Notes: generated by a model not told the origin, from the letters alone. Shown: positions 3,275 through 63,933, numbered from the stretch's first letter. The stretch is DNA of 64,000 bases from an uncultured Thermoleophilaceae bacterium (GCA_963729205.1 CAVSNA010000003.1:1-64000), one strand, 5' to 3'. Made by a program: numbers and translations.

Positions 3275-4949
3275 CTAGGGCACCTTGGAGCGCGTGGGCT
3301 CGGCGTCGAAGAGGCTGTGGACGAGCTGCACCGCGACGGAGCCCTCTCCAACGGCTGACGCCACCCGTTTCACGGAGCCATGTCGAACGTCGCCCGCCGC
3401 GAGCACGCCGGGCATGCTCGTCTCCAGCGCAAACGGCGGACGCTCGAGCGGCCAGCGGAGGTCGTCCGGAAGATCCTCGCCGGTGCAGAGGAACCCATGG
3501 CTGTCGCGCACTATGTCGTGAGGCAGCCAGTCGGTGTGCGGGTGTGCCCCGATCAGCACGAAGAGCGCATCGGCGGCGACGGTCTCCTCGTCGGCGGTGG
3601 AGGCCTCGCGGAGCACGAGCTCCCGCAGGTGGCCGTCACCTCCTCCGCCGACGATCGTGGTGCCGGTGCGCACGTCGATGCTCGGCGTGGCGCCGACCTC
3701 CTGGATGAGGTAGTGCGACATCCCAGCCTCGAGGCTTGCACCGCGCACGACGAGGGTGACGCGGCGCGCATAGCGCGCAAGGTGCAAGGCGGCCTGCCCC
3801 GCCGAGTTTCCGCCACCTGCGACGAAAACGTCCCGTCCGCTGAGCGCGTGGGCCTCCGAGGTCGAGCCACCGTAGAAGACGCCGGCGCCGGTCAACGCCT
3901 CGAGCGACGGAACGCCCAGGCGGCGATAGTTTGCGCCGGTGGCGAGGATCACCACCGCGGCGCTGACGCGGCGGCCGTCGGCGAGCGAGATCGTGAGCCG
4001 CTGGCCCTCTCGCTCGAGCGTGGCCGCTCGATGCATGAACACGAAGCTCGCCCCGAAGACGGAGGCCTGCTCGTACGCCTGCTCAGCCAGCCGACTCCCA
4101 CTCACCCCGCGTGGGAAGCCGAGGTAGTTGCGGATCAGCGAGCTGGACCGGGCCTGTCCCCCGATCCCGCCCTCGTCGATCACGAGCGTTCGCAGGCCTT
4201 CCGAGGCGCCGTAGACCGCCGCGGACAGGCCCGCGGGCCCAGCACCCACGATCACGAGGTCGTAGTCGCGTGCGTCGAAGTCGGTCGGGGCGCCGGCAGC
4301 CTCCGCGATCTCGGCGTTCGACGGGTCGCTGAGCGCGCGCCCGTCCGGAAGGATCATGACCGGGAGCTTCACGTCGGGACCCGTCCTCGCGAGCAGCGCG
4401 CGCCCCTCTTCGGAGTCGGCCAGGGAGAAGGTATGTGGAGCCGCACAGCTCTCGAAGGTCTCGCGCAGCTCGTGGGCCCTGCCCGACCACTGCCTCGCCG
4501 ACGATGTGGACGGTGTGCGGAACCTTGCGCCGCTCCGTCGCCCACTCGAGCAGGAAGGTCGAGATCGTGTGGTGGAACACCTCGTCCGGCCAACGCGCCG
4601 GCATCGGGACGTAGTAGTTGATGCGGCCCAGCGCGATCGCGTCGAGCATCGCCTCGGCGGTCTGCGGGTCTGCCAGGGCGTCCCACGCAACCATCAGCCC
4701 ACGCTTGGCGTGCGGATGGAGCTGGCGCGCTCGGTCGAGCACTCCACCGTCGTTCACGCACTCGGCCGCCAGCACCAGTGCCAGCTCGGCGCCCGCATCG
4801 GCAAGCTCAGCCAGCTCTCGTAGCGCGTCCTCCTGATCGCTCGCGCTCTCGACCCGATAGTCGTGGGCATAGCGCTGGTCGAGCTGGGCCTTGACCTCTC
4901 CGAGGGCGGCCAGATCTCGGTCGATTACGAGGAGGACGGGTAGCGACAT
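3275..4949 (-). CDS. Thioredoxin-reductase-like FAD/NAD(P)-binding disulfide oxidoreductase with an extra N-terminal domain of about 190 aa. One frameshift lies near 4450-4500.
   Basis: DYDLVIVGAGPAGLSAAVYGA (FAD GxGxxG), VFVAGGGNSAGQAAL (NAD(P) site), and a C-terminal GVLAAGDVRHGSVKRVASAVGEGSVA block. The N-terminal domain (MSLPVLLVIDRD...) is in another frame that overlaps by about 20 codons. Confidence 0.6.
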
Positions 4950-10436: not shown

Positions 10437-11214
10437 CTACTCCACCAGCGGCGGTTCGCGCAGCGACGAGTTGATGTGCTCGGACAGCGCCGCGGCGGCG
10501 GCCCGCTGGGCGGCCAGCCGTTCGTCGTCGTCGCGAGCGCTGAGCGCCGCCGCGTCGTAGGAGCTCGACGCCGCCTCCCAGAACTCACGGAGGCGGTCGG
10601 TCTCCAGGCGAGCGTCGCGCCGCATCGTCTCGACGCTGTCGGCGATGACGGCGGCAGACGTGCTGGCGTCGTAGGTCCGCTCGGCGATCGTCTCCCGCGC
10701 GAACGTGAACGTGCCGCGGTCCGTGAGCACCGGCCGGTGGAGCACCCGATCGATGCGCGTCGAGGCGTCGGCCAGCACGCTGGTGTTGACGCTGAAGCGC
10801 GGGTACGGCTGGATGCCGTCAAGCCACTCCTGCCTGAGCTGGTCGGCCGCGCGCGTATGGCGCTGGTCGATGGTCACGCCGACGTACTCGGCCACGTGGA
10901 CCCAACCCCAATGCGTCGCCGCCAGCACCAGCCCGAGCAGGAGCAGGACCACGTCGAACGCACCGCCCGAGTGGAACAGCAGCCGCCACGCGGCGTACAG
11001 CGCGAGCGCGCTGCCCCCCGACCAGGGTCGCACCGGTAAGGACCGAGCCCGCCGCCACCAGCCGGTTATGCGTGCTGCTGGAGAAGACAGCGGGCTCCCG
11101 CCGCTGTTCGGCCTCAGGCAGGTTGATCAGGTCATCGCCCAGCAGCCGGGGGTCGGGGGCGACCCCCAGGAACGCGACCAACTCCTCGCCGGACCGTCCA
11201 GCGTCCTGAGGCAT
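10437..11214 (-). CDS. Hypothetical membrane protein encoded immediately downstream of the SPFH gene, with one frameshift near 11040
   Basis: Two or three hydrophobic helices (LALYAAWRLLF, FDVVLLLLGLVLAATHWGWV) followed by a soluble C-terminal region. No recognisable catalytic motif. Confidence 0.35.
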
Positions 11215-30335: not shown

Positions 30336-31013
30336 ATGAGCTCCGGCCTCAGCCTCCCGCTCGCGCTCAGCCCGCTCGATCAGGTGCTGAAGCGCGCCGG
30401 GGCGCACATGGCCGAGCGCCAGGGCTGGCTGGTGGCCGCCGACTTCGGCTCGCTGGCCGCCGAGCTCGCCGTCAGCCGGGCCGCCGCGGGGCTCGCGGAC
30501 GTGTCGAGCATCGCCAAGTTCGAACTGCGAGGCAGCGAGCACGAGCTCGCCGAGATCCATCCGTCGGAGCGCTCGTTCGCCTCCCGTCGCGGCGTGCGGG
30601 CACGCGACGCCTGGTGGTGCCCGCTGTCACCCGAGCTGCTGCTGGTGCTGGCCATGCCGGGAGCCAAGGCCAGGGTCAGGCAGGAGGTGGAGGAGCTCGC
30701 CGCGGGAAGCGACGTGCGGATGGTCGACGTCACCTCCGAGCGCGTGGCCGTCTGCCTCCTCGGACCCGCGGCGCGCGAGGTGCTCTCGCGCGCGGGGGCG
30801 CAGGCCCTGCTGCCGGGCACGGTCCGCGCCGAGTCGGTGGAGGGGATACCCACGCTCGTGCTGCACGAGGACGAGCAACGCTGGCTGCTGGTGGCGCCGG
30901 CCGCGGACGCCGCCGAGCTCTGGCAAGCGCTGTCGGACGCGGGCGCGCCGTTCGGCCTGGCGTACGTGGGCTCGGACGCGCTGCAGCATCTCCTGGCCGC
31001 GCGCGACAGGTAG
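30336..31013 (+). CDS. GcvT-fold / sarcosine-oxidase-gamma-like small protein (225 aa)
   Basis: ADVSSIAKFELRG resembles the aminomethyltransferase-fold signature strand. The size and layout resemble SoxG-family proteins. Assignment is by weak motif similarity only. Confidence 0.45.
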   Translation: MSSGLSLPLALSPLDQVLKRAGAHMAERQGWLVAADFGSLAAELAVSRAAAGLADVSSIAKFELRGSEHELAEIHPSERSFASRRGVRARDAWWCPLSPELLLVLAMPGAKARVRQEVEELAAGSDVRMVDVTSERVAVCLLGPAAREVLSRAGAQALLPGTVRAESVEGIPTLVLHEDEQRWLLVAPAADAAELWQALSDAGAPFGLAYVGSDALQHLLAARDR

Positions 31014-31060
31014 CGCGGCGGCGCTCAGCCGGGTCGTCGGTTGCGAAGCGTCGCGGCCCG

Positions 31061-31190
31061 GATCGCAATAAGGGCGGCCCGGTTGGGAGCGGCGATCCGA
31101 GATTGAAGGATTTGGTGGGCTATAGCACCCACAATCCTTCAATCGTTGATCCTCGCGGCCTCGGGTCGTCCTCATTGCTGGTCGGGCTCC
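31061..31190. repeat. Palindromic element of about 120 bp, copy A (AT-rich core GATTGAAGGATTTGGTGGGCTATAGCACCCACAATCCTTCAATC)
   Basis: A second copy lies at 60815-60935. The outer arms GCAATAAGGGCGGCCCG / CGGGTCGTCCTCATTGC are also inverted. It lies between convergent gene ends. Confidence 0.6.
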
Positions 31191-31219
31191 GCCACGGCGA
31201 CCGCCCCGGCCGAGCCGAC

Positions 31220-32197
31220 CTAAGCCCTGGCGGTCTGCCCCAGCGCCGCCCGCACTCCGGCGATCTGCTGCGCGGTGACGCCACAGCAGCCGCCGACGAT
31301 CTGGGCTCCGGCGTCGATCCAGGTGGAGGCGAGGCCGGCGTAGTCCTGCGGGCCCACCGTGGTGTCGAACTCCCAGTGCGCGCCGGCGCCGTGGCCGAGG
31401 TTGGGGTAGCAGCCGATCGGCAGCGACGTCTGACCGCGCAACCAGGCGACGGTCTCCTCGAGCTCGTCAGCGGGCACGCAGTTCACGAGGATCGCCTTCA
31501 CGCCGAGGGCCTCGAGCCGCTCGGCTCCGTGGCGGAAGTCGGCCGGATCGGTGTCCGGGGTCACGTTGCCGTCCGCGTCGGACATGCCCTCGGGGCGGCG
31601 GCGGAAGCTCGTCCAGACCGGCAGGCCCGTGTCGCAGACCATCTCGATCGCCTGGAGCGCCAGGCCGTCGGGGATCGCCTCGAGCGTCTCGAGGATCACG
31701 AGGTCGGGCGGCTCGTCGTGCCACAGCCACGAGAGCAGCTCGAGCCGCCCGGTGGCGCGCTCGTCGAGCAGGCTCGAGTTGATGCAGAAGGCCGTGGCGC
31801 AGTCGCCAACGCGCCCTGCCTCGTCGATCGCCTGCCGCGCCAGCCGCACGCCGAGCCGAGCGGCGTCGAGCCAGAGCGAGCTGCGGCTCGGCCCGGCGGG
31901 CTCGGTGCCGGCCACCTCCGCCGCCTCGAGCACCGACCACGTGTTGGTGGAGATCACGTCGCAGCCCGCGGCCACGTAGCGGCGGTGCACCTCGAGGACC
32001 TCCACCGGGCCCTGGAACAGGGTCCAGGTGCCCCACGGCTCGCGCCTGCGGGCGCGGTCCTCCGATTGCACCTGCTGGAGCTCGGTGGCCACGCCGCCGT
32101 CGAGCAGCACGGGGCCGCCCGCGGCGAGCGCGCCCTCGATCCGCTCGTACGCGCGCGAGAGCGGCAGTTGCCCCAGGTAGTGGCCGCCGCCCGCCAT
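31220..32197 (-). CDS. Homocysteine S-methyltransferase-domain protein (PF02574; MmuM/BHMT-like)
   Basis: VLLDGGVATEL, AGCDVISTNTW, ILVNCVP and the zinc-binding GGCCGVT motif. Its ATG overlaps the upstream stop (ATGA at 32195-32199). Confidence 0.75.
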   Translation of the reverse strand: MAGGGHYLGQLPLSRAYERIEGALAAGGPVLLDGGVATELQQVQSEDRARRREPWGTWTLFQGPVEVLEVHRRYVAAGCDVISTNTWSVLEAAEVAGTEPAGPSRSSLWLDAARLGVRLARQAIDEAGRVGDCATAFCINSSLLDERATGRLELLSWLWHDEPPDLVILETLEAIPDGLALQAIEMVCDTGLPVWTSFRRRPEGMSDADGNVTPDTDPADFRHGAERLEALGVKAILVNCVPADELEETVAWLRGQTSLPIGCYPNLGHGAGAHWEFDTTVGPQDYAGLASTWIDAGAQIVGGCCGVTAQQIAGVRAALGQTARA

Positions 32198-34020
32198 CAG
32201 CTGGCCACCCGCCGCTCGCGCGGCGTCGAGCCGTTCTCCCGGGTGATCTCGATCAGGTAGGCGATCATCATGTTCACGTCTCCAAAACGAAGGTGGTAGG
32301 CGTCGGAGAGCTCCTCGACGCGGCGGATCTGTTCAGCGTATTCACCGAACAGCGGGCTGAACTCGAAGAAGCTGAAGTCGACCACTCGCCCCGACAGGCC
32401 CTTCGCCTGCAGCTGCTTCAGCGTCTCGCGCTGGCTGAGGATCGAGAGCTGCATCAGGTAGGCGCGGCCGTCCGGCTCGAGCAGGCTCGGCAGCAGGCTG
32501 AGCAGGTGGTCGAACAGGCCGCGGCCCCAGTAGTCGAGCGGGCGGTGGCTCGTGAGCTGCTGGAACGGGTCGTTGGGCATCTGGTAGAGGCTCGCGACGA
32601 CCACGTCGTAGCGGTGCTCCGGGTCCCACGGGTAGAGGTCGACCTGCTCGCCCGACACGCGGTCGGCCACGCCGTTGCGGAAGGCGTTGCTGAGCGTGTT
32701 GGCCACCGCGCGCTTGTCGATGTCGATCGCGTGCACCTGGGAGGCGCCGTTCAGCGCGAGCTGCGTGGCGAGCAGGCCCGTCCCGCAGCCGACGTCCAGG
32801 CAGCGCGCGCCCTCGCCGACGCCGTGGGTGTAGAGGTGCTTCCAGATCAGGAAGCTGCCGGCGGTCGGCACGAACACGTCGGGCTCGACGATCAGCTCGG
32901 GCATTGGCAGCGGATAGAGGCGCCGGCCACGCTCGTCGAGCCACGGCTCGAGCTGGACGCGCTCGCCCAGCGCGGAGGCGCCGGCCTCATCGGTCCAGCC
33001 GTCGTCGGCGCTGGCGTGCCTGCGCCCGGGGCGGGTGCCGGCGAGGCGCGTCTTGGCCGCGCCGATGTGGTGGGGCCGGACGCCGCAGCAGCCGCCGATG
33101 ATGTCGGCGCCGTCGTCGCGCCAGGCCGCCGCCAGCTCGGCGAACTCCTCGCCGCCGATGCGGTGGTCGAAGGCCCAGCCCGACTCGGTGTAGTAGCCGA
33201 GGTTGGGGTAGACGCCCAGCGGCAGGTCGGTGAAGTCGCGCAGCCAGGGCAGCATTCCCGCGACGTGATCGGGCGGGATGCAGTTGATCAGCAGCGCCGC
33301 CACGCCCATCTCCTCGAAGCGGCGGGCGGCGCGGCCGAAGAGGTCGCCCTCGGGACCGCCCCAGTGCTCGCCGAACACGCCGCAGAGACCATGCCGGCAG
33401 CGGCGGAAGCTGAGCCAGACGGGGTAGCCGCTGTCCACCAGCGTCTGCACCGCCTGGAAGGTGAGCTCGTGGATGAGCGACATCGTCTCGAGCAGGACGA
33501 AGTCGGGCGGCTCGTCCTCGAATACGCGCGCGAGGAGCTCGAAGCGCTCCAGGCCCTGCTCGTCCGAGACCTCGCCGTGAAGGCTGAAGGCCACCGCCGT
33601 GTCTCCCGACCTACCGACGTCGGCGGTGGCCTTCCGGGCCAGGCCGATCGCCCGGCGCGCCAGCTGCATCCAATCGGCCGGCGGGGTGCCCGTCGAGCCG
33701 TGCTCGCCGTTCATGGCGTTCTGGATGCCCCAGGTGTTGGTCGAGATCACGTCGCAGCCCACCTCGGCGTAGCTGCGGTGCACGCGCGTGACCACGTCGG
33801 GCGCGTTGAGCAGCGCCCAGGTGCCCCACATCGCGTCGTCGCGCAGCTCGTAGCCGGGCGTCTCGATCTCCTCGAGCTCGGTGGCCATGCCGCCGTCGAG
33901 AACCACGCACTGCTCGCGGGAGAGAAGCTGCTCGATGCGGCTGTAGGCGGGAGAGTGATGCCGCGGCACGCCGCCGCTGCGGGCGATCGTCTCGGCGCGG
34001 CTGCGCGACGGCACGGCCAT
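32197..34020 (-). CDS. Fusion protein: N-terminal homocysteine S-methyltransferase domain plus C-terminal class-I SAM-dependent (PrmA-like) methyltransferase domain
   Basis: N-terminal half: VVLDGGMATELE, VGCDVISTNTWGI, LINCIPP, IIGGCCGVRPHHI. C-terminal half: LDVGCGTGLLATQLALNGASQVHAIDIDKRAVANTLSNAFRNGVADRV (SAM motif I / post-I). Continuous 607-aa ORF with no frameshift. Confidence 0.75.
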   Translation of the reverse strand: MAVPSRSRAETIARSGGVPRHHSPAYSRIEQLLSREQCVVLDGGMATELEEIETPGYELRDDAMWGTWALLNAPDVVTRVHRSYAEVGCDVISTNTWGIQNAMNGEHGSTGTPPADWMQLARRAIGLARKATADVGRSGDTAVAFSLHGEVSDEQGLERFELLARVFEDEPPDFVLLETMSLIHELTFQAVQTLVDSGYPVWLSFRRCRHGLCGVFGEHWGGPEGDLFGRAARRFEEMGVAALLINCIPPDHVAGMLPWLRDFTDLPLGVYPNLGYYTESGWAFDHRIGGEEFAELAAAWRDDGADIIGGCCGVRPHHIGAAKTRLAGTRPGRRHASADDGWTDEAGASALGERVQLEPWLDERGRRLYPLPMPELIVEPDVFVPTAGSFLIWKHLYTHGVGEGARCLDVGCGTGLLATQLALNGASQVHAIDIDKRAVANTLSNAFRNGVADRVSGEQVDLYPWDPEHRYDVVVASLYQMPNDPFQQLTSHRPLDYWGRGLFDHLLSLLPSLLEPDGRAYLMQLSILSQRETLKQLQAKGLSGRVVDFSFFEFSPLFGEYAEQIRRVEELSDAYHLRFGDVNMMIAYLIEITRENGSTPRERRVAS

Positions 34021-55880: not shown

Positions 55881-56666
55881 GTGTCGACCGACCAGCAGCC
55901 GCTCGCGGGCCGCCGAGCGCTTGTCACGGGCGGGGCCACCGGCATCGGTCGCGCCACCGCGGCGCGGCTGGCCGCCGACGGCGCCGCCGTGGTCGTCAAC
56001 TACGTGGGGGACACGGAGCCGGCCGCAAGCGCGGTGAGCGAGATCGACGCGGCCGGCGGCCGGGCACTCGCCATCGCCGCCGACGTGTCGAACGAGGAGC
56101 AGGTCGTGGCGATGTTCGAGCGAGCGGGAGCCGAGCTCGGCGGGCCCGTGGACCTGCTGGTGAACAACGCCGGGATCGAGTCGCCGTTCGCGCTCGTCGA
56201 CATGCCGCTCGAGGAGTGGAACAAGGTGATCGCTGTGAACCTCACGGGCGGGTTCCTCTGCTCCCGTGAGGCCGCGCGGGGAATGCTGGGGGCGGGCGCC
56301 AAGGGCGCGATCGTGAACGTATCAAGCGTCCACGAGGTGATCCCGTGGCCGGGCTTCGGGCACTACTGCGCGTCGAAGGGCGGGCTGAAGCTGTTCGCGC
56401 AGACGATCGCCCGCGAGCTGGCGCCGAGCGGCATCCGCGTGGTGAACGTGGCGCCCGGAGCCATCCTCACGCCGATCAACCAGGCGCTCATAGACGACCC
56501 AGCGATGCTCGCCGCCGTGGAGGAGGAGATCCCCCTCGGCCGCACCGGCCTTCCCGAGGAGGTCGCAGCAGCGATCGCGTGGGTGGCTGGGCCCGAAGCC
56601 GAGTATGTGGTCGGGTCCACGCTGTTCGTTGATGGGGGCATGACGCTGTATCCGAAGTTCATCTGA
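55881..56666 (+). CDS. Short-chain dehydrogenase/reductase (classical SDR)
   Basis: VTGGATGIGRA (TGxxxGxG), NNAG, YCASKGG (YxxxK). Intact. Confidence 0.8.
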   Translation: MSTDQQPLAGRRALVTGGATGIGRATAARLAADGAAVVVNYVGDTEPAASAVSEIDAAGGRALAIAADVSNEEQVVAMFERAGAELGGPVDLLVNNAGIESPFALVDMPLEEWNKVIAVNLTGGFLCSREAARGMLGAGAKGAIVNVSSVHEVIPWPGFGHYCASKGGLKLFAQTIARELAPSGIRVVNVAPGAILTPINQALIDDPAMLAAVEEEIPLGRTGLPEEVAAAIAWVAGPEAEYVVGSTLFVDGGMTLYPKFI

Positions 56667-56675
56667 GGGGACTCG

Positions 56676-56795
56676 GGTGTCGGGTCTCGGGTGTCGGGAC
56701 CGCCCGCGTCCTTTCTTACGTTGACGTAGCCGGTCTTCTCGGGACATGGTCGGGTTGAAAGCCCCGACACCCCAGACCCGAGACCCGACACCCGG
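56676..56795. repeat. Long imperfect inverted repeat (arms of about 28 nt built from tandem GGGTGTCGGG units, about 55-nt spacer) between the SDR gene and the RpiR gene
   Basis: CTCGGGTGTCGGGTCTCGGGTGTCGGG at 56678-56704 pairs with CCCGACACCCCAGACCCGAGACCCGACACCCGG at 56763-56795. Confidence 0.55.
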
Positions 56796-56824: not shown

Positions 56825-57689
56825 TTGCCCGTGAGCCGTGCAGGCACAAGCGCGCTGACCCTGTCCGCCGAGATCCGTCAGCGCTTCGACGAGTTCTCGC
56901 GCTCGCAGAAGGACGTCGGCCAGTACATCGTCGACCACCTCGACGAGGCCGCCTTCCAGACTGCCGAGGAGCTGGCGCGCCGGGCGATCCACCTCGAGCT
57001 CGACCGTCGTGCGCTTCGCCCAGGCGCTCGGATTCGAGGGCTTCCCCGAGCTCCAGGCCGCCGCGCGCGACGAGTACCGGCGCGTGCGCGAGTCGGCGCC
57101 GTCGAACGGCGGCTCGGACATGCTCGCGCCGCCGCTGTTCCCGATCGACCAGACCGAGTTCGAGGCGTCGCTCGCCGCCGACCACACGAACCTCGAGGAC
57201 ACCGCGCGCAAGATCGACCGCGACGAGGTGGCCGCCGCGGTCGAGCTGATCTCGCGCGCGGAGCGGATCGTGCTCTGCGGCACCGACCAGATGGCCTTCT
57301 TCGCCAGCTACCTGCGCCACCTGCTGATGCTGCTCGACCTCCGCTGCGAGGTCGTCGCCAGCCCCAGCCAGGAGGGCCTGGCGCGGCTCGGCCGCATCGA
57401 CGAGAGCACGCTGGTGATCGGCTTCTCGGCCGGGCGCCCGCACCCGCTCGTCGTGCGCGCGATGAAGCTCGCCCGCCACCGCAAGGCCGTCGACGATCGC
57501 GATCGCGGACGCCACGCTCTCCGAGGTCGCAAAGCTGGCCGGCCAGCGCTCTACTACTCGTCGAACGGCCCGGCCTACGTGCGCTCGCACACGGCGCTCC
57601 TCAGCCTGATCCAGGCGCTGGCGTACGGCGTGTACGCCCTGGACGAGTCGGCCTACGCCGACCGCATCAAAGCCTTCCGGCTCAAGTAG
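56825..57689 (+). pseudogene. RpiR/MurR-family transcriptional regulator (HTH_6 + SIS domain), with three or more frameshifts
   Basis: VGQYIVDHLDEAAFQTAEELA, VVRFAQALGFEGFPEL (HTH), SIS-domain blocks IVLCGTDQMAFFASYL. Confidence 0.55.
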
Positions 57690-58186
57690 CCGGACGAGGT
57701 CGGGCGCGAGGCCGTCGGAAAGGAAGGGCCGACGGCCACTGGCCCGACCCTCCGCGCTCAGCTTTCGCTGGCGTGAGGCGCGGCTCGCCGTCGTGTCGGC
57801 GGTCGCCTACGGGGCGCTGATGGTCGGCGGTGCTGCCCGGCACCTGGCCGCTGATGCCGTTCCCGCAGACGCGGCCCGGTGGTCCTGGCCCCGTGCTCAG
57901 CCTCCCGTTCGGGCTGCTGCTGCGCCGCCGCTGGGCGGCGCTCCTGCCGCTGACGCTGCTCGTCGCACTCGACCCGCCGCAGAGCCGGCTTCGCGGGCTC
58001 GGTGGTGGCGCTCGTGATCATCGGGCCCTTCGCGGCGGCGAGCATCTGCGTCGGCGTGGCGTGCTCGCGCTGGCTCCAGCGCCGGGCGCTGCGCCGGATG
58101 CTGTCGCGCGCTGCTCCACCGCGGCGCACGGCCCAGGCCGCTCGTTAGCCAGGCGGGCCCTTCCCCGCCGCAGCCGGGTGGATAAT

Positions 58187-59667: not shown

Positions 59668-60776
59668 AGGACCAGCGCGCCGACAGCGCTCGCCCAGATC
59701 CTCGTCCACTACTCCACGAAGGTGCAGAAGGGCGAGATCTGCGTGATCCAGTCCACGACCACCGCCGAGCCGCTGGTGCAGGCGGTCTACGAGGAGGTGC
59801 TGAAGGCCGGCGGCCTGCCGATCGTGCAGCTCACCCCCGAGGGCGCCGCCGCGGCGTTCTACGAGCTGGCCAGCGACGAGCAGCTCGAGTGGGTCGCGCC
59901 CACCGCCGCACTGGGCGGTCGAGGAGGCCGACGTCCGCATCGCCGATCCTGGCCGACGCGAACACGCGCGGCGCTCTCGCAGGTCGACCCGGCGAAGCAG
60001 GCGCAGACGCCAGCAGGCGCGCAAGCCGCTGATGGAGACCTCGATGCGCCGCAGCGCCGAGGGCGACTACCGCTGGGCGCTGACCCTCTTCCCGACCCAC
60101 GCCTACGCCAGCGAGGCGGGCATGTCGCTGTCCGCCTACGAGGACTTCTACTACGACGCCTGCCTGGCGACCGACCCCGAGCCGCTCACCGCCTGGCAGC
60201 GCCAGTCCGACCTGGTGCGCAAGCTCGCCGACTGGATCGAGGGCAAGGAGGAGGTCCACATCCAGGCGCCCGGCACCGACATCAAGCTGGGCGTCGCCGG
60301 CCGCACCTGGATCCCCTGCGTCGGCGACCGCAACATGCCCGACGGCGAGTTCTTCACCGGTCCGGTCGAGGACTCGGTGGAGGGCGAGGTCAGCTTCTCG
60401 TTCCCGGCCGTCTACGGCGGCCGCGAGGTGTCGGGCGTGCAGCTGCGCTTCGAGGACGGCAAGGTCGTGGACGCCTCGGCGGAGCGCGGCGAGGACTACC
60501 TGATCGAGATGCTCGACTCCGACGACGGCGCCCGCCGCCTCGGCGAGCTCGGCATCGGCACCAACTACGGGATCACCACCGCCACCAAGGAGATCCTGCT
60601 CGACGAGAAGATCGGCGGCAGCGTGCACATGGCGATCGGCATGAGCTACCCGGAGACGGGCGGCCAGAACAGCTCCGCGGTCCACTGGGACATGGTGTGC
60701 GACCTGCGCGCAGGGCGGGACGATCACGGTCGACGGGGAGGTGCTGCAGGAGAACGGGCAGTTCGTCGTCAGGTAG
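59664..60776 (+). pseudogene. M29-family (AmpS/PepS-like) aminopeptidase, with three or more frameshifts
   Basis: GEICVIQSTTTAEPLVQAVYEE, AIGMSYPETGGQNSSAVHWDMVCDLR. Confidence 0.55.
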
Positions 60777-60814
60777 GCGCTCAGCGCCGCCGCTGGTGCG
60801 CCGACGCGGTTCGG

Positions 60815-60935
60815 CGGCAATAACGGCAGCCCGAGGCCGTCTCGGCGATCGATTGAACGATTTGGGGTGCTATAGCACCCCAAACCGTTCAATCATCGAC
60901 CGACCCCGCTTCGGGCCGCCCTCATTGCCAGCGGT
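60815..60935. repeat. Palindromic element of about 120 bp, copy B (core GATTGAACGATTTGGGGTGCTATAGCACCCCAAACCGTTCAATC)
   Basis: About 80% identical to copy A at 31061-31190, including the outer inverted arms GCAATAACGGCAGCCCG / CGGGCCGCCCTCATTGC. It lies between convergent gene ends. Confidence 0.6.
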
Positions 60936-60971
60936 AGACGCAGATGCCTGATCGGCGCCCGGGGCCAACCG

Positions 60972-63933
60972 CTACCGCAGGCTGAAGCTCGTGACGTTCC
61001 GCCCGCTCCGGAAGGCCTCCGCCAGCCCCGTGTCGTCAATCGCCTGCGACCGCACCGTGTAGGTGCCCCGCGGCAGCAGGTGGGGGATTCGCAGCGTCCA
61101 GCGCAGGCCGTCGGTCACCCGGGCGTTCAGGTACTGCGGCTGGGAGCAGCGCTTCTTCACGAGGTGGGCTCCGCGCGTGAGCCAGACGCACCTGCCGTGG
61201 CCGACGCTGCGCGAGACCGCCACGCGCACCTGCACCACCCTGCCGTTGTCCTCGCTCGTCCCGGCCACGAGGTGCACCTTGCGGCGCAGGTTCGTGCCGA
61301 ACGGCTCGCCGATCAGCGACGTGGGGGGTAGGTCGAGGCCCGCGCTGACCTCGGCGAGCGCGCCCGTGGCCAGGTCGCGGCGGTAGATCCGGCCCTGGGA
61401 GGTCGGCGTCTCGCCCGCGACCACGTTCGCGGCGCGCGAGGAGAAGGCCACGAAGTGGCCGTCGGCGCTCACCGCCCCCTGGGTGCTCGGGCCGGCCAGG
61501 CCCGTGCCGTCGGGGTGGGCGGAGACCATGACCGTCGCCGCGGTGGCGACCGTGCGGGCGAAGACGTCGGCCGTGCCGTTCGAGTCGCCCAGCACCAGGT
61601 TCGAGGCGTTCGACGTGAACACCGCCAGCGAGCCGTCGGCGGAGATCGAGTCCGCGGTCGAGTCGCCGTTCGCGCCCGAGCCGTCCTTGCCCTGGCTGAC
61701 GAGCGTGACCTCGCCGGTGGCCATGTCCTTGCGGAAGACGTCGATCGTGCGGCCGTTCAGGTTGCCGCCGGGGAGGTCGGTGGCGTCCGAGTCGAACAGC
61801 ACGTAGCGGCCGTCCGCCGAGATCTTCGGGTTCTGGCCGTTGCCGTCCGAGCTGGTGGCGCCCGCGGGCACGTCGACGAGCGCGATCTCGCCACTGATCA
61901 TGTCCTTGCGGTAGATGCCGGCGCGGTCGCCGTCGCCCGGCACCAGCCCGCCGGCGTCGCTCGTGAACGCCACGTAGCGGCCGTCGGCGCTGATCGAGGG
62001 CTGGCCGGAGCTGCCCACGGTGTTCACCGAGTCGCTGATAGGGGTGGACACGCGCTGGAGCGTGCCGCTCGGGATGTCGCACCAGTAGACGTCGGGCTGC
62101 AGGTCCCGGTCGCGCCCGGCGAGCGTGTCGGCCCGCGACTCGAAGGCCACGTGCTGCCCGTCCGCGCTGATCACCGGGTTGCCGGCGTCGCCGTCGCCCG
62201 CCCGGCAGGCGCGCTGGTTCTGGCCGCTGAAGAGGTCGCGGCGGAAGATCGTGTAGGCCGGCACGCCGCCGGTGAGGTCGCGGAGTGTTGCTGGTGAAGA
62301 CGGCGTAGCGACCATCCGCGCTGAGATCGCCCGCCGGCCCGCGGCGGAAGCGGCCACCGCGACTGGCCGAGGCCCCTGAGCGCTTCGCGTCGGCCAGCAT
62401 GTTCTTCCCGGTGGCCATGTCGCGCACGAACGGATCGGTACGGGCGCCGTTCGAGTCGGCAGCCACGAGGTTGTCGGCGTCCGAGGAGTAGCCCGACGAA
62501 GCGCCCATCGCCGCTGATCGACGGCGCGCTGGCGCCCCCGTCCGGAGGAGACGGGGAGAGCCGGTTCGGCAACGGATCCCCCGCCCGGCGTGGCTCGGGC
62601 CTGTGGACTGTGGACCGTGGACTGTGGACTGCGGCCGCCTTGGCGGCCGCAGCCCGGCACCACATTCGGCACCCCAGGCGGCCAGACCTCGGACGACGGG
62701 TGGTAGAAGTGGCCGAAGTCGGCCTCGTGGAACTGCGAGGTGAAGACCTCGCAGTTGCGGTAGACGCCGCGCCGCGCCGGGTTGATCGCGACCACGTCGA
62801 AGCCGCGGCCGCAGTCCACGTAGGCGCGGCCGTTCGGGTCGGTGGTGTCCCCGCCCAGCAGGTTGATCACGTCGTTGCCGGTGCCGGCCAGGATGCGATC
62901 GCCGTCGTAGGCGCCCTGGATCAGGTCGTCGCCCGGGCCCGCCCACCAGCAGGTCCGCGCCCGAGCCCCCGGCCAGCTCGTCGTTCCCGGGCGGCCCGGC
63001 GCTGGGCGAGCGGGCATCGCCGTAGAGCTTGTCGTTGCCGGAGCGGCCCGCCAGGCGGTCGTTGCCCGAGCCGCCCATCAGCAGGTCGTTGCCCGGTGTG
63101 GCGCCGTCGCCCTCGAGCTCGTCCTGGCCGCCGCCGCCGAACAGGCGGTCGTTGCCGCCCTTGCCCTCGATGAAGTCGTTGCCCGAGCCGCCCGCCAGCG
63201 TGTCGTTCCCGTTGTGGCCGAGGATCTGGCGCATCGGGAAGGCCGCCGTGGGGTCCACGTTCACGATGTGCTCGCAGCCCGCCGACTCGGGTATCGAGGC
63301 GTCCGCCCGGCCGGTGGAGAGGCCGTCGCTCGAGGAGTGGCGGACGCGGTAGACCGTGTCGTTGCCGGGCCCGCAGTCGAAGGTGTCGCGATTCGGGCCG
63401 CCGTAGAGCGTGTCGTCGCCCGGGCCGCCGTAGAGGTGGTCGCTGCCCGAGCCTCCGATCAGCACGTCGTTGCCGGTGCCGCCGAAGATGTAGTCGCCGC
63501 CGCGGCCGCCGGCCACGATGTCGTTGCCGGGGCCGCCGTAGAGGTGCTCGTTCACGCCGAAGCGGCGCTCGCGGATCGTGTCGTCGCCAAGCCCACCGAG
63601 GATCGTGTCGTTGTCGTCGCCGCCGTCCAGGTAGTCGGCGCCGCGCTCGCCGTAGATCTCGTCGTTGCCCGGTCCGCCCTGGATCACGTCGCCGTAGGCG
63701 GAGCCCTCCACCGTGTCGTGGCCGTTCTCGCCGAAGAACGTGACCGCGAGCGGCTCGCCGGAGAAGACCGCGTCGTCGCCCTCGTCGGTGCCGCAGGTGG
63801 GCCCTCCGGGCGTGCTCGGGACGTCGACGGAGAACTCGACTCCGCACGCCGAGTGGTAGCTCGTCGCAGCCGCCGAAAAGGCGGGAAAGGCCGCCACGAG
63901 GGCGGCGACGATTATCGCCGGCAGAAGCCGCAT
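60972..63933 (-). pseudogene. Large secreted protein: Sec signal peptide, N-terminal RTX-type calcium-binding nonapeptide repeats, central PD40/TolB-like beta-propeller repeats, C-terminal beta-sandwich domain. Several frameshifts.
   Basis: MRLLPAIIVAALVAAFPAFSAAATS is the signal peptide. GGPGNDEIYGERGADYLDGGDDNDTILGGLGDDTI... are GGxGxDxL repeats. ISADGRYVAFTSDA, ISADGRYVLFDSDA and VSADGHFVAFSS are PD40 repeats. Confidence 0.6.
62601..62634. repeat. Tandem heptanucleotide repeat (TGTGGAC x4-5, imperfect) inside the RTX/PD40 gene
   Basis: CTGTGGACTGTGGACCGTGGACTGTGGACTGCGG. The unit length is not a multiple of 3, so copy-number change would shift the frame. Confidence 0.55.

Follow-up and report, generated by a model that had tools for sequence, protein, structure and literature searches.

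The 64,000-nt stretch of DNA analysed here (the window), from an uncultured Thermoleophilaceae bacterium, contains two copies of a nested palindrome of about 114 bp, each lying between the 3′ ends of converging genes, and homologues of this palindrome are present in other genomes of the actinobacterial class Thermoleophilia. With moderate confidence we read it, from its sequence, distribution and position, as a lineage-restricted REP/TRIT/MITE-like palindromic repeat that would serve as the 3′-end hairpin of both converging transcripts. It is a new, previously uncatalogued family within a known class of elements (REP/REPIN, ERIC, Correia-type MITEs, TRIT), and there is no sign of an unusual mechanism in it.

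Results

Two copies of a palindrome at converging gene ends

An earlier note on this DNA had described two copies of a long imperfect palindrome with about 80% identity over about 120 bp. Both copies lie where it had placed them (Table 1), and an inverted-repeat search agrees on the palindrome in each case. The identity that we measured is 75-79% over 112-114 nt, with a mean column identity of 79% (190 nt aligned), 78% over 78 ungapped nt in the comparison that groups the copies as repeat family D6, and 89 matches in 118 positions from terminus to terminus. Judged by this alignment, the copies are homologous over their full length, including the unpaired spacers. In copy B the two arms meet with a spacer of 0 nt, and copy A consists of a 34-nt inner pair of arms (74% complementary) together with outer arms. 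One detail of the earlier description was mistaken, as the right arm of copy A, reported as GCCCTCATTGC, reads GTCCTCATTGC.

The core of each copy was rightly said to be AT-rich for a genome of 71% GC: the values in Table 1 compare with 0.712 for the window, and just 10 stretches in the 64 kb are as AT-rich over 44 nt. The 30-nt core pattern GATTGAANGATTTGGNGNGCTATAGCACCC matches copies A and B only, with 0 matches expected from 100 shuffles, and the 17-nt terminal motif GCAATRAGGGCGGCCCG matches the four arms and one further site with three mismatches, where 0.94 matches were expected. Chance or a local duplication as the source of the two copies was rejected on the basis of the shuffles and of the unrelated flanks.

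Table 1. Positions of the two elements, their parts and the adjoining genes in the window
Feature	Position	Strand	Evidence and remarks
Copy A, full element	31065..31178		114 bp palindrome; alignment, fold, inverted-repeat search
Copy A, left terminal repeat GCAATAAGGGCGGCCCG	31065..31081	+	0 mismatches to motif; start 58 nt from centre
Copy A, AT-rich core hairpin GATTGAAGGATTTGGTGGGCTATAGCACCCACAATCCTTCAATC	31101..31144		core pattern; covariance model 60.6/59.2 bits (+/-); GC 0.455
Copy A, right terminal repeat (reverse strand GCAATGAGGACGACCCG)	31162..31178	-	2 mismatches to motif
Copy B, full element	60817..60928		112 bp palindrome; 57-nt arms, 77% complementary
Copy B, left terminal repeat GCAATAACGGCAGCCCG	60817..60833	+	2 mismatches to motif
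Copy B, AT-rich core hairpin GATTGAACGATTTGGGGTGCTATAGCACCCCAAACCGTTCAATC	60851..60894		core pattern; covariance model 66.7/66.3 bits; GC 0.477
Copy B, right terminal repeat (reverse strand GCAATGAGGGCGGCCCG)	60912..60928	-	0 mismatches; 31-nt right end matches the site-A element of relative L027 at 30/31
GCV_T folate-binding (SoxG-like) gene, 225 aa, before copy A	30336..31013	+	frame analysis, Pfam
Homocysteine S-methyltransferase gene, 325 aa, after copy A	31220..32197	-	stop at 31220
M29 aminopeptidase gene, before copy B	60032..60823	+	apparently frameshifted; homologous C-terminus ends with TAG at 60774-60776
PD40/RTX-repeat gene, after copy B	60972..63017	-	stop at 60972; open frame runs further upstream

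Genes in the window were called by frame analysis, using the GC content of the third codon position, and by Pfam matches, and both kinds of evidence agree with the earlier placing of the two copies between convergent gene ends, here those of housekeeping genes. For copy B the convergent arrangement holds, and the M29 stop is either the TAG at 60774-60776 or a TAA inside the element (60821-60823). In this gene (59804-60823) the Pfam match ends at 385 of the 406 profile positions, the C-terminus homologous to that of relatives (TITVDGEVLQENGQFVVR*) continues in another frame up to 60774-60776, and the database gene call is 259 aa long in this genome, compared with 367-370 aa in relatives. The apparent frameshift is likely caused by indels in the long-read MAG assembly, and the element sequences themselves could be off by a base or two from the same type of error.

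The intergenic gaps that bear the element measure 206 bp (site A) and 148 bp (site B). The other converging pairs in the window, as given by a rough gene caller, have gaps of 37, 4, -47, -4, -4 and -31 bp; as most of them abut or overlap, the blocks of about 114 bp look like additions. In agreement with the earlier note, no transposase domain was found in the genes called within about 10 kb of either copy, although some stretches there have no called gene, and the genes called at the syntenic loci L027 and L028 include none either. The window has no tRNA or tmRNA. Two coding-related ideas were discarded: the element does not carry stops in all three frames, one plus-strand frame being open through copy A (ORF 30614-32260), and the TAA of GCAATAA does not end a conserved C-terminal peptide, the codons upstream of it not being conserved.

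Other repeats were seen in the window. An unrelated long inverted repeat at 56668-56794 begins 2 nt past the stop (TGA 56664-56666) of a short-chain dehydrogenase gene; it has 31-nt arms built of heptad-like units (GGGTGTC GGGTCTC GGGTGTC), 87% complementary and separated by a 64-nt AT-richer spacer, with fold z-scores of -3.3 (+) and -4.6 (-), and it is absent from all the loci that we fetched. The minus-strand gene that runs from 60972 to beyond 63933 contains, between 62858 and 63723, at least 14 repeats of 27 nt (9 residues) of the RTX/hemolysin-type calcium-binding kind, as well as PD40 beta-propeller repeats.

Conserved termini around a conserved core

The element has two layers, an outer pair of terminal inverted repeats (GCAATRAGGGCGGCCCG) and an inner AT-rich hairpin of 44-50 nt (TTGAA...GCTATAGC...TTCAA), with a GC content of 0.46-0.48 in a genome of 0.71. 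The core consensus is CGR-TTGAA-NNN-TT-6nt-GC-TATA-GC-6nt-AA-NNN-TTCAA-YCG, and the conserved termini, GCAATRAGGGCGG(CCCG), stand at both ends about 57 nt either side of the centre (start at 56-59 nt). The terminal motif GCAATRAGGGCGG is found 56-64 nt from the centre in both window copies and in L007, L009, L015 and L027, and from this fixed distance in six loci we take the ancestral unit to be about 114 bp. Over all arms, 13 of 36 have at most three mismatches to the motif, compared with 3% of background segments.

Around the core, the outer stems differ by lineage in L001, L007 and L013, and in L014 and L016 the core stands nearly alone. L007 and L009, the two copies of MAG SMAG_U3956, are also alike in the flanks beyond the core. 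By this comparison the element is modular, made of conserved termini and a separately conserved core. This feature is absent from the earlier account, as are the cores that stand alone or within other outer stems and the low apparent copy number.

Folding, which the earlier note had advised, gave strong predicted hairpins on both strands, with -71.6 (+) and -63.1 (-) kcal/mol for copy A and -76.5 (+) and -91.0 (-) kcal/mol for copy B; the z-scores lie between -5.9 and -12.3, and none of 200 shuffles folds as well.

Two observations concern the sequences at the termini. The motif CGTAGACG(C), or its variant CGTAAACGC, lies just outside the terminal repeats of copy B (60934-60941), L027 (~11008-11015) and L028 (~11131-11140), and in L007 its place is between core and outer stem (~4806-4815). 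Opposite the motif stands a GCGTCTACG-like sequence with which it pairs. Within it are both GTAG and GACG, the latter complementary to CGTC; these are tags of REP superfamilies, here in a non-canonical position. A match to the terminal motif on an IMG/VR contig with a GC content of 0.63 (L045, 3762-3778) is a small terminator-like hairpin (GCAATAAGGGCGGCCCGGT...ACCGGACCGCCCATTG), and given this hairpin the termini may derive from a common terminator-stem sequence not unique to the element.

Covariation in the core stem

In an alignment of the 54-nt core from 17 sequences (A3), the 21-pair core hairpin is paired in 84% of the cells, with changes on both sides in 11 of its 21 pairs. Its covariation score is 0.269, compared with 0.107 ± 0.018 in shuffles (0/500 as high), and it falls to at most 0.118 when the partners are slid by 1-3 columns. 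As far as this alignment goes, the pairing of the stem is maintained through double changes. Eight pairs are invariant, but it is precisely these eight that the search patterns fix, and their invariance is therefore not evidence; L027, which was found through synteny, varies at these nominally invariant columns (GCTCTAGC, CTGAAG).

A covariance model built from the core (R1) gives intact copies 40-72 bits; for the copy in L008, which is truncated where the contig ends, the score on the other strand drops to 31 bits. Neither the window, nor the loci, nor some 135 kb of sequence from relatives contains anything else that scores above about 10 bits, with filters on or off, and more diverged copies were thus not found there. 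The model thus sets the members at least 20 bits apart from all other sequence searched, which marks the family as discrete.

The cells that are not Watson-Crick pairs comprise 7 GU, 8 AC and 48 others. As there is no excess of wobble pairs, an RNA hairpin acting on both strands is not separable from a palindrome acting at the DNA level. The latter would be a role between converging genes, either through extrusion of a cruciform or through binding of a nucleoid- or topoisomerase-type protein at the AT-rich centre. A role of this kind has been proposed for REP/BIME elements of E. coli (gyrase, IHF), and supercoiling stress builds up between converging transcription units, which is where the element mostly lies. 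The equal symmetry of the two strands, the wobble pairs no commoner than A-C mismatches, and a TATA centre with GC clamps in an AT-rich core, which would favour strand opening in a 71% GC genome, are all in line with it. The same symmetry is, however, what an RNA hairpin under selection on both strands would show. Four of the copies are flanked by co-directional genes, and no candidate binding protein is known; we regard a DNA-level role as quite unlikely.

Homologues in other Thermoleophilia

We scanned one genome per species from 185,579 species with a strict 18-base core pattern, which gave 12 loci. Five of these are true homologues in four Thermoleophilia MAGs, assigned to Thermoleophilaceae, Solirubrobacterales (twice) and Solirubrobacteraceae, the last with two loci in one MAG; the other seven were dismissed as chance matches in low-GC sequence or tRNA. 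A metagenome scan, in which TTGAA, TT, GCTATAGC, AA and TTCAA were fixed and the stems left free, gave 14 loci, of which 12 are distinct (L015, L020 and L025 being one locus), with a GC content of 0.66-0.72 throughout. In all, the scans add 17 distinct loci with the core to the two in the window; all of them are high-GC, and those with a name all belong to Thermoleophilia. The best named matches of the window's proteins are likewise in Thermoleophilaceae and Solirubrobacterales MAGs, which places the window in this class. Judging from these scans, the element is restricted to Thermoleophilia. The earlier note had reckoned that a pair of copies with no counterparts in relatives would speak for chance or local duplication, and these homologues are such counterparts.

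The density of the element is two copies in the 64-kb window, one or two matches to the strict pattern per MAG and, once the two orthologous sites are set aside, none in about 135 kb from relatives. This makes hundreds of copies per genome unlikely, and the copy number per genome is probably low.

A scan of 2.9 million viral contigs (IMG/VR) gave no match to the core pattern, and blastn searches of the PLSDB plasmids and INPHARED phages were likewise negative; a phage or plasmid origin was rejected on these grounds. The 13 matches of the terminal motif in viral contigs were set aside as single-arm chance matches, mostly within coding sequence. At the gathering threshold, Rfam 15 has no match in the whole window, and a permissive search at the locus returned generic hairpin (miRNA) models only, the best at 21.8 bits against a threshold of 196. 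A full-text literature search found no account of such an element in Thermoleophilia.

Gain, loss and decay at orthologous sites

The orthologous sites of relatives are variously filled, altered or empty (protein identities in brackets); on the whole, the element is found in close relatives, its interior doubled, exchanged or decayed, and in more distant ones the genes abut with nothing between them. At site A, L027 (85%) has perfect termini around two tandem core-type hairpins, which fold as a three-way structure of -83 kcal/mol, and L028 (77%) has perfect termini around an interior that is unrecognisable as the core and forms a long hairpin of -85 kcal/mol. L030 (70%) has no element and the same two genes lie 7 bp apart, and L029 (81%) has no element, a different neighbour and a gap of 2 bp. 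At site B, the copy in L033 (93%) is decayed (fold z-score -1.0), so constraint is weak in at least one lineage; no copy is present in L034 (88%), where the gap is 2 bp, or in L035 (86%), and both of these keep the ancestral PdxS-PdxT-M29-YebC-Ruv gene order.

The right end of the L027 site-A copy matches window copy B at 32 of 36 positions and its own orthologue, copy A, at 25 of 35, and it aligns with copy B from end to end save for a 40-nt extra hairpin. A stem sub-variant, GGATTT(T)CCGTG, is common to this extra hairpin and to L016, which come from different samples and contexts. Taken together, the filled and empty sites, the likeness of the L027 copy to copy B and the sub-variant shared by L016 and L027 lead us to suppose that the repeat moves or converts between sites. 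These comparisons indicate gains and losses over the time in which proteins diverge to 70-90% identity, and decay in some lineages.

Both sites coincide with breaks in gene order relative to L029, L030, L034 and L035 (31013-31220 and 60776-60972). At site A, the neighbour of the S-methyltransferase gene is variously the SoxG-like gene, a 464-aa GCV_T gene, Exo_endo_phos or a SoxD operon, and at site B the large PD40/RTX gene follows the M29 peptidase in place of YebC-RuvCAB. With two sites only, this coincidence may simply reflect where rearrangements are tolerated.

The same turnover would be expected of a purely selfish, non-autonomous palindromic transposon (MITE/REPIN-like) that survives where it is harmless, past gene ends, and has no function for the host. 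This explanation overlaps with our preferred reading and differs from it solely in denying a host function. It would account for the dispersal of copies at unrelated loci, the terminal inverted repeats at a fixed distance, the patchy and low-copy taxonomic distribution, the filled, empty and decayed orthologous sites, the closer likeness of the L027 copy to a non-orthologous copy, its two tandem core hairpins and the sub-variant shared between samples. Against it, target-site duplications are lacking, we saw neither a partner transposase nor an autonomous element that ends in these termini, and MITEs and REPs have far more copies. The compensatory changes in the stem also imply selection on the hairpin, but a transposase that acts on a folded substrate would give the same pattern. 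We consider selfish DNA with no host role possible, though doubtful.

Position relative to genes

At the 12 independent loci where both neighbours could be assigned, the element lies between convergent genes in eight cases, between tandem genes in four and between divergent genes in none (P=0.003 against 1:2:1), and 20 of the 24 flanks are gene 3′ ends (P=0.0008). The distance from the stop codon to the hairpin is 0-100 nt, and in L014 and L015 the stop codon is the TGA within TTGAA or the TCA within TTCAA.

Conserved structure with covariation, and four copies upstream of a co-directional gene, could suit a small RNA gene or a cis-regulatory RNA for the neighbour, an explanation to which we give hardly any weight. 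The element scores equally on both strands and has neither a promoter-like site (a scan found none within it, and the hexamers TTGAAG and TATAGC are only 12 nt apart) nor an Rfam match. In the tandem loci, the upstream stop is nearer (4-122 nt) than the downstream start (at least 70 nt). Lastly, the neighbouring housekeeping genes have nothing in common; they include a LuxR-type regulator, FtsK/CinA, ferritin, FakA/MFS, MetK, AhpC/Na-Ca exchanger, RpiA, MoeA, NifU, GuaA and others.

Comparison with known classes of element

The earlier note had offered two identities, a bidirectional terminator and a REP/MITE-like genomic repeat. The first is borne out by the position and by the strength of the hairpin, a stable structure 0-100 nt past stop codons as in a canonical intrinsic terminator, but not by the tail: there is no U-tract (at least 5 T in 8) after the stem, and a terminator scan found no site at either copy. 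The tails of the copies read UCAUUGC or UUAUUGC (CTCATTGC, 3 T in 8), and that of L028 reads CTTATTGC (4 T in 8). A canonical intrinsic terminator was rejected for this lack. Like a canonical bidirectional terminator, the element has a GC-rich stem between converging genes, preceded by A-rich and followed by U-rich sequence (GCAAUAA...UUAUUGC), but it differs in having 3-4 U in 8 in its tail, a stem of about 50 bp and a conserved AT-rich interior.

It is very improbable that the copies are ordinary bidirectional intrinsic terminators that evolved in place and look alike since terminators look alike. The place between converging stops, the strength and high GC content of the outer stem and a small surplus of A/U in the tail (AAUAA...UUAUU in L028) would fit, but the sequence homology between unrelated loci already contradicts it, as the identity of the window copies extends over unpaired segments and the same core and geometry recur at the 17 further loci. 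Nor would it account for the gap of at least 20 bits to other sequence or for the missing U-tract. Other hairpins at gene 3′ ends in the window are plain GC stems without the core. One at 57698-57749, directly after the stop of a plus-strand gene ending at 57689, has 21-nt arms (86% complementary), a 10-nt loop and no AT-rich core, and represents the ordinary 3′-end hairpin of this genome.

The second identity fares better, given the full-length homology, the unrelated loci in other Thermoleophilia and the variable orthologous sites. A MITE is by definition flanked by target-site duplications and has the same termini as an autonomous IS. The element has terminal inverted repeats and dispersed, polymorphic copies (two in the window, two in SMAG_U3956, and filled or empty orthologous sites). 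It has no target-site duplication, its flanks (ATC/TGG, GCG/CAG, CTT/AAG, GCA/CGC) tending instead to extend the palindrome, and with no partner IS seen, a textbook MITE was ruled out. ERIC, Correia and other MITEs resemble it in length (~110-150 bp), terminal inverted repeats, the potential of the whole element to form a hairpin, intergenic location, presence/absence polymorphism and co-transcription with neighbours, which our element would share; unlike it, they typically have tens to hundreds of copies.

The REP, BIME and REPIN elements of Proteobacteria are likewise extragenic palindromes found mainly downstream of coding regions, in composite, nested or dimeric arrangements and with no target-site duplication, and REPs are thought to act as RNA hairpins (in mRNA stabilisation or termination) or as protein-binding DNA sites. 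REPs are 20-40 bp long, usually exceed 100 copies per genome and have a GTAG or CGTC tag at one end and RAYT transposases (PMC3733652). Our element differs in its length of about 114 bp with a 44-50 bp core, in its low apparent copy number and in that no RAYT was seen. The sequence GTAGAC(G) is found beside copy B, L027, L028 and L007, 3′ of the stem on each strand, and not beside copy A. A textbook REP was rejected on account of the size, the low apparent copy number and the lack of a properly placed GTAG/CGTC tag.

The closest analogue, in the way that it would work, is TRIT, the Tuberculosis Rho-independent terminator motif. TRIT comprises 147 palindromic, sequence-conserved copies at gene termini of M. 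tuberculosis, is restricted to Mycobacterium and has a narrow position around -8 from the stop; its authors suspected that some factor recognises this conserved motif in double-stranded form (Gardner et al. 2011, PMC3152330). Both are lineage-restricted hairpins with conserved sequence and structure, located at gene termini, mostly bidirectional, in a high-GC actinobacterium without canonical terminators. Our element differs in occurring in Thermoleophilia, in having one or two copies per stretch or MAG, in lying 0-100 nt from stops, in its much greater length of about 114 nt and in its nested structure.

Discussion

In our preferred reading, that of a repeat acting as a shared 3′-end hairpin, the element would have been placed into the short space past gene ends, mostly between converging genes, and would be transcribed as the 3′ tail of one or both neighbours. 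The transcript of either strand would then form a stem of about 50 bp. This stem might stop or stall RNA polymerase weakly, owing to the poor U-tract; more probably, it would keep 3′-to-5′ exonucleases from advancing, so that the mRNA 3′ ends would be defined and stabilised and each of the converging transcription units insulated from the other. REP hairpins have been credited with such a barrier role, which was also put forward for TRIT. We favour stabilisation or processing over termination proper because the mycobacterial RNA polymerase, the nearest enzyme that has been studied, needs a U-tract to terminate (PMC3993855). The sequence conservation at the base and apex of the core would imply a protein that recognises them, either a mobilising enzyme or a hairpin-binding factor. 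As for mobility, it is the distribution of the copies that suggests it.

A bolder form of this proposal, which we think unlikely, is that the AT-rich core (TTGAA...GC-TATA-GC...TTCAA) is a self-contained mobile hairpin module, read in its folded form by a dedicated protein of Thermoleophilia and inserting into or next to terminator-type stems. The reader would be a transposase specific for single strands or hairpins, or a termination or processing factor, and insertion would yield nested or tandem arrangements such as the two hairpins within one clamp in L027. If true, the mobile core would be a portable 3′-end signal, served by a cognate factor of its own.

Thermoleophilia are abundant soil actinobacteria. 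To our knowledge, there is almost no molecular genetics of this class, and high-GC actinobacteria are generally without recognisable terminators. Even if it were merely selfish DNA, the element would be a compact modular palindrome in which termini and core differ in their pace of evolution from lineage to lineage. As a 3′-end hairpin, it would make Thermoleophilia, after TRIT, the second actinobacterial lineage with a repeated, sequence-specific hairpin in place of generic terminators. The family may thus offer annotators a marker for transcript 3′ ends in Thermoleophilia, as well as a defined substrate for finding the protein that reads it.
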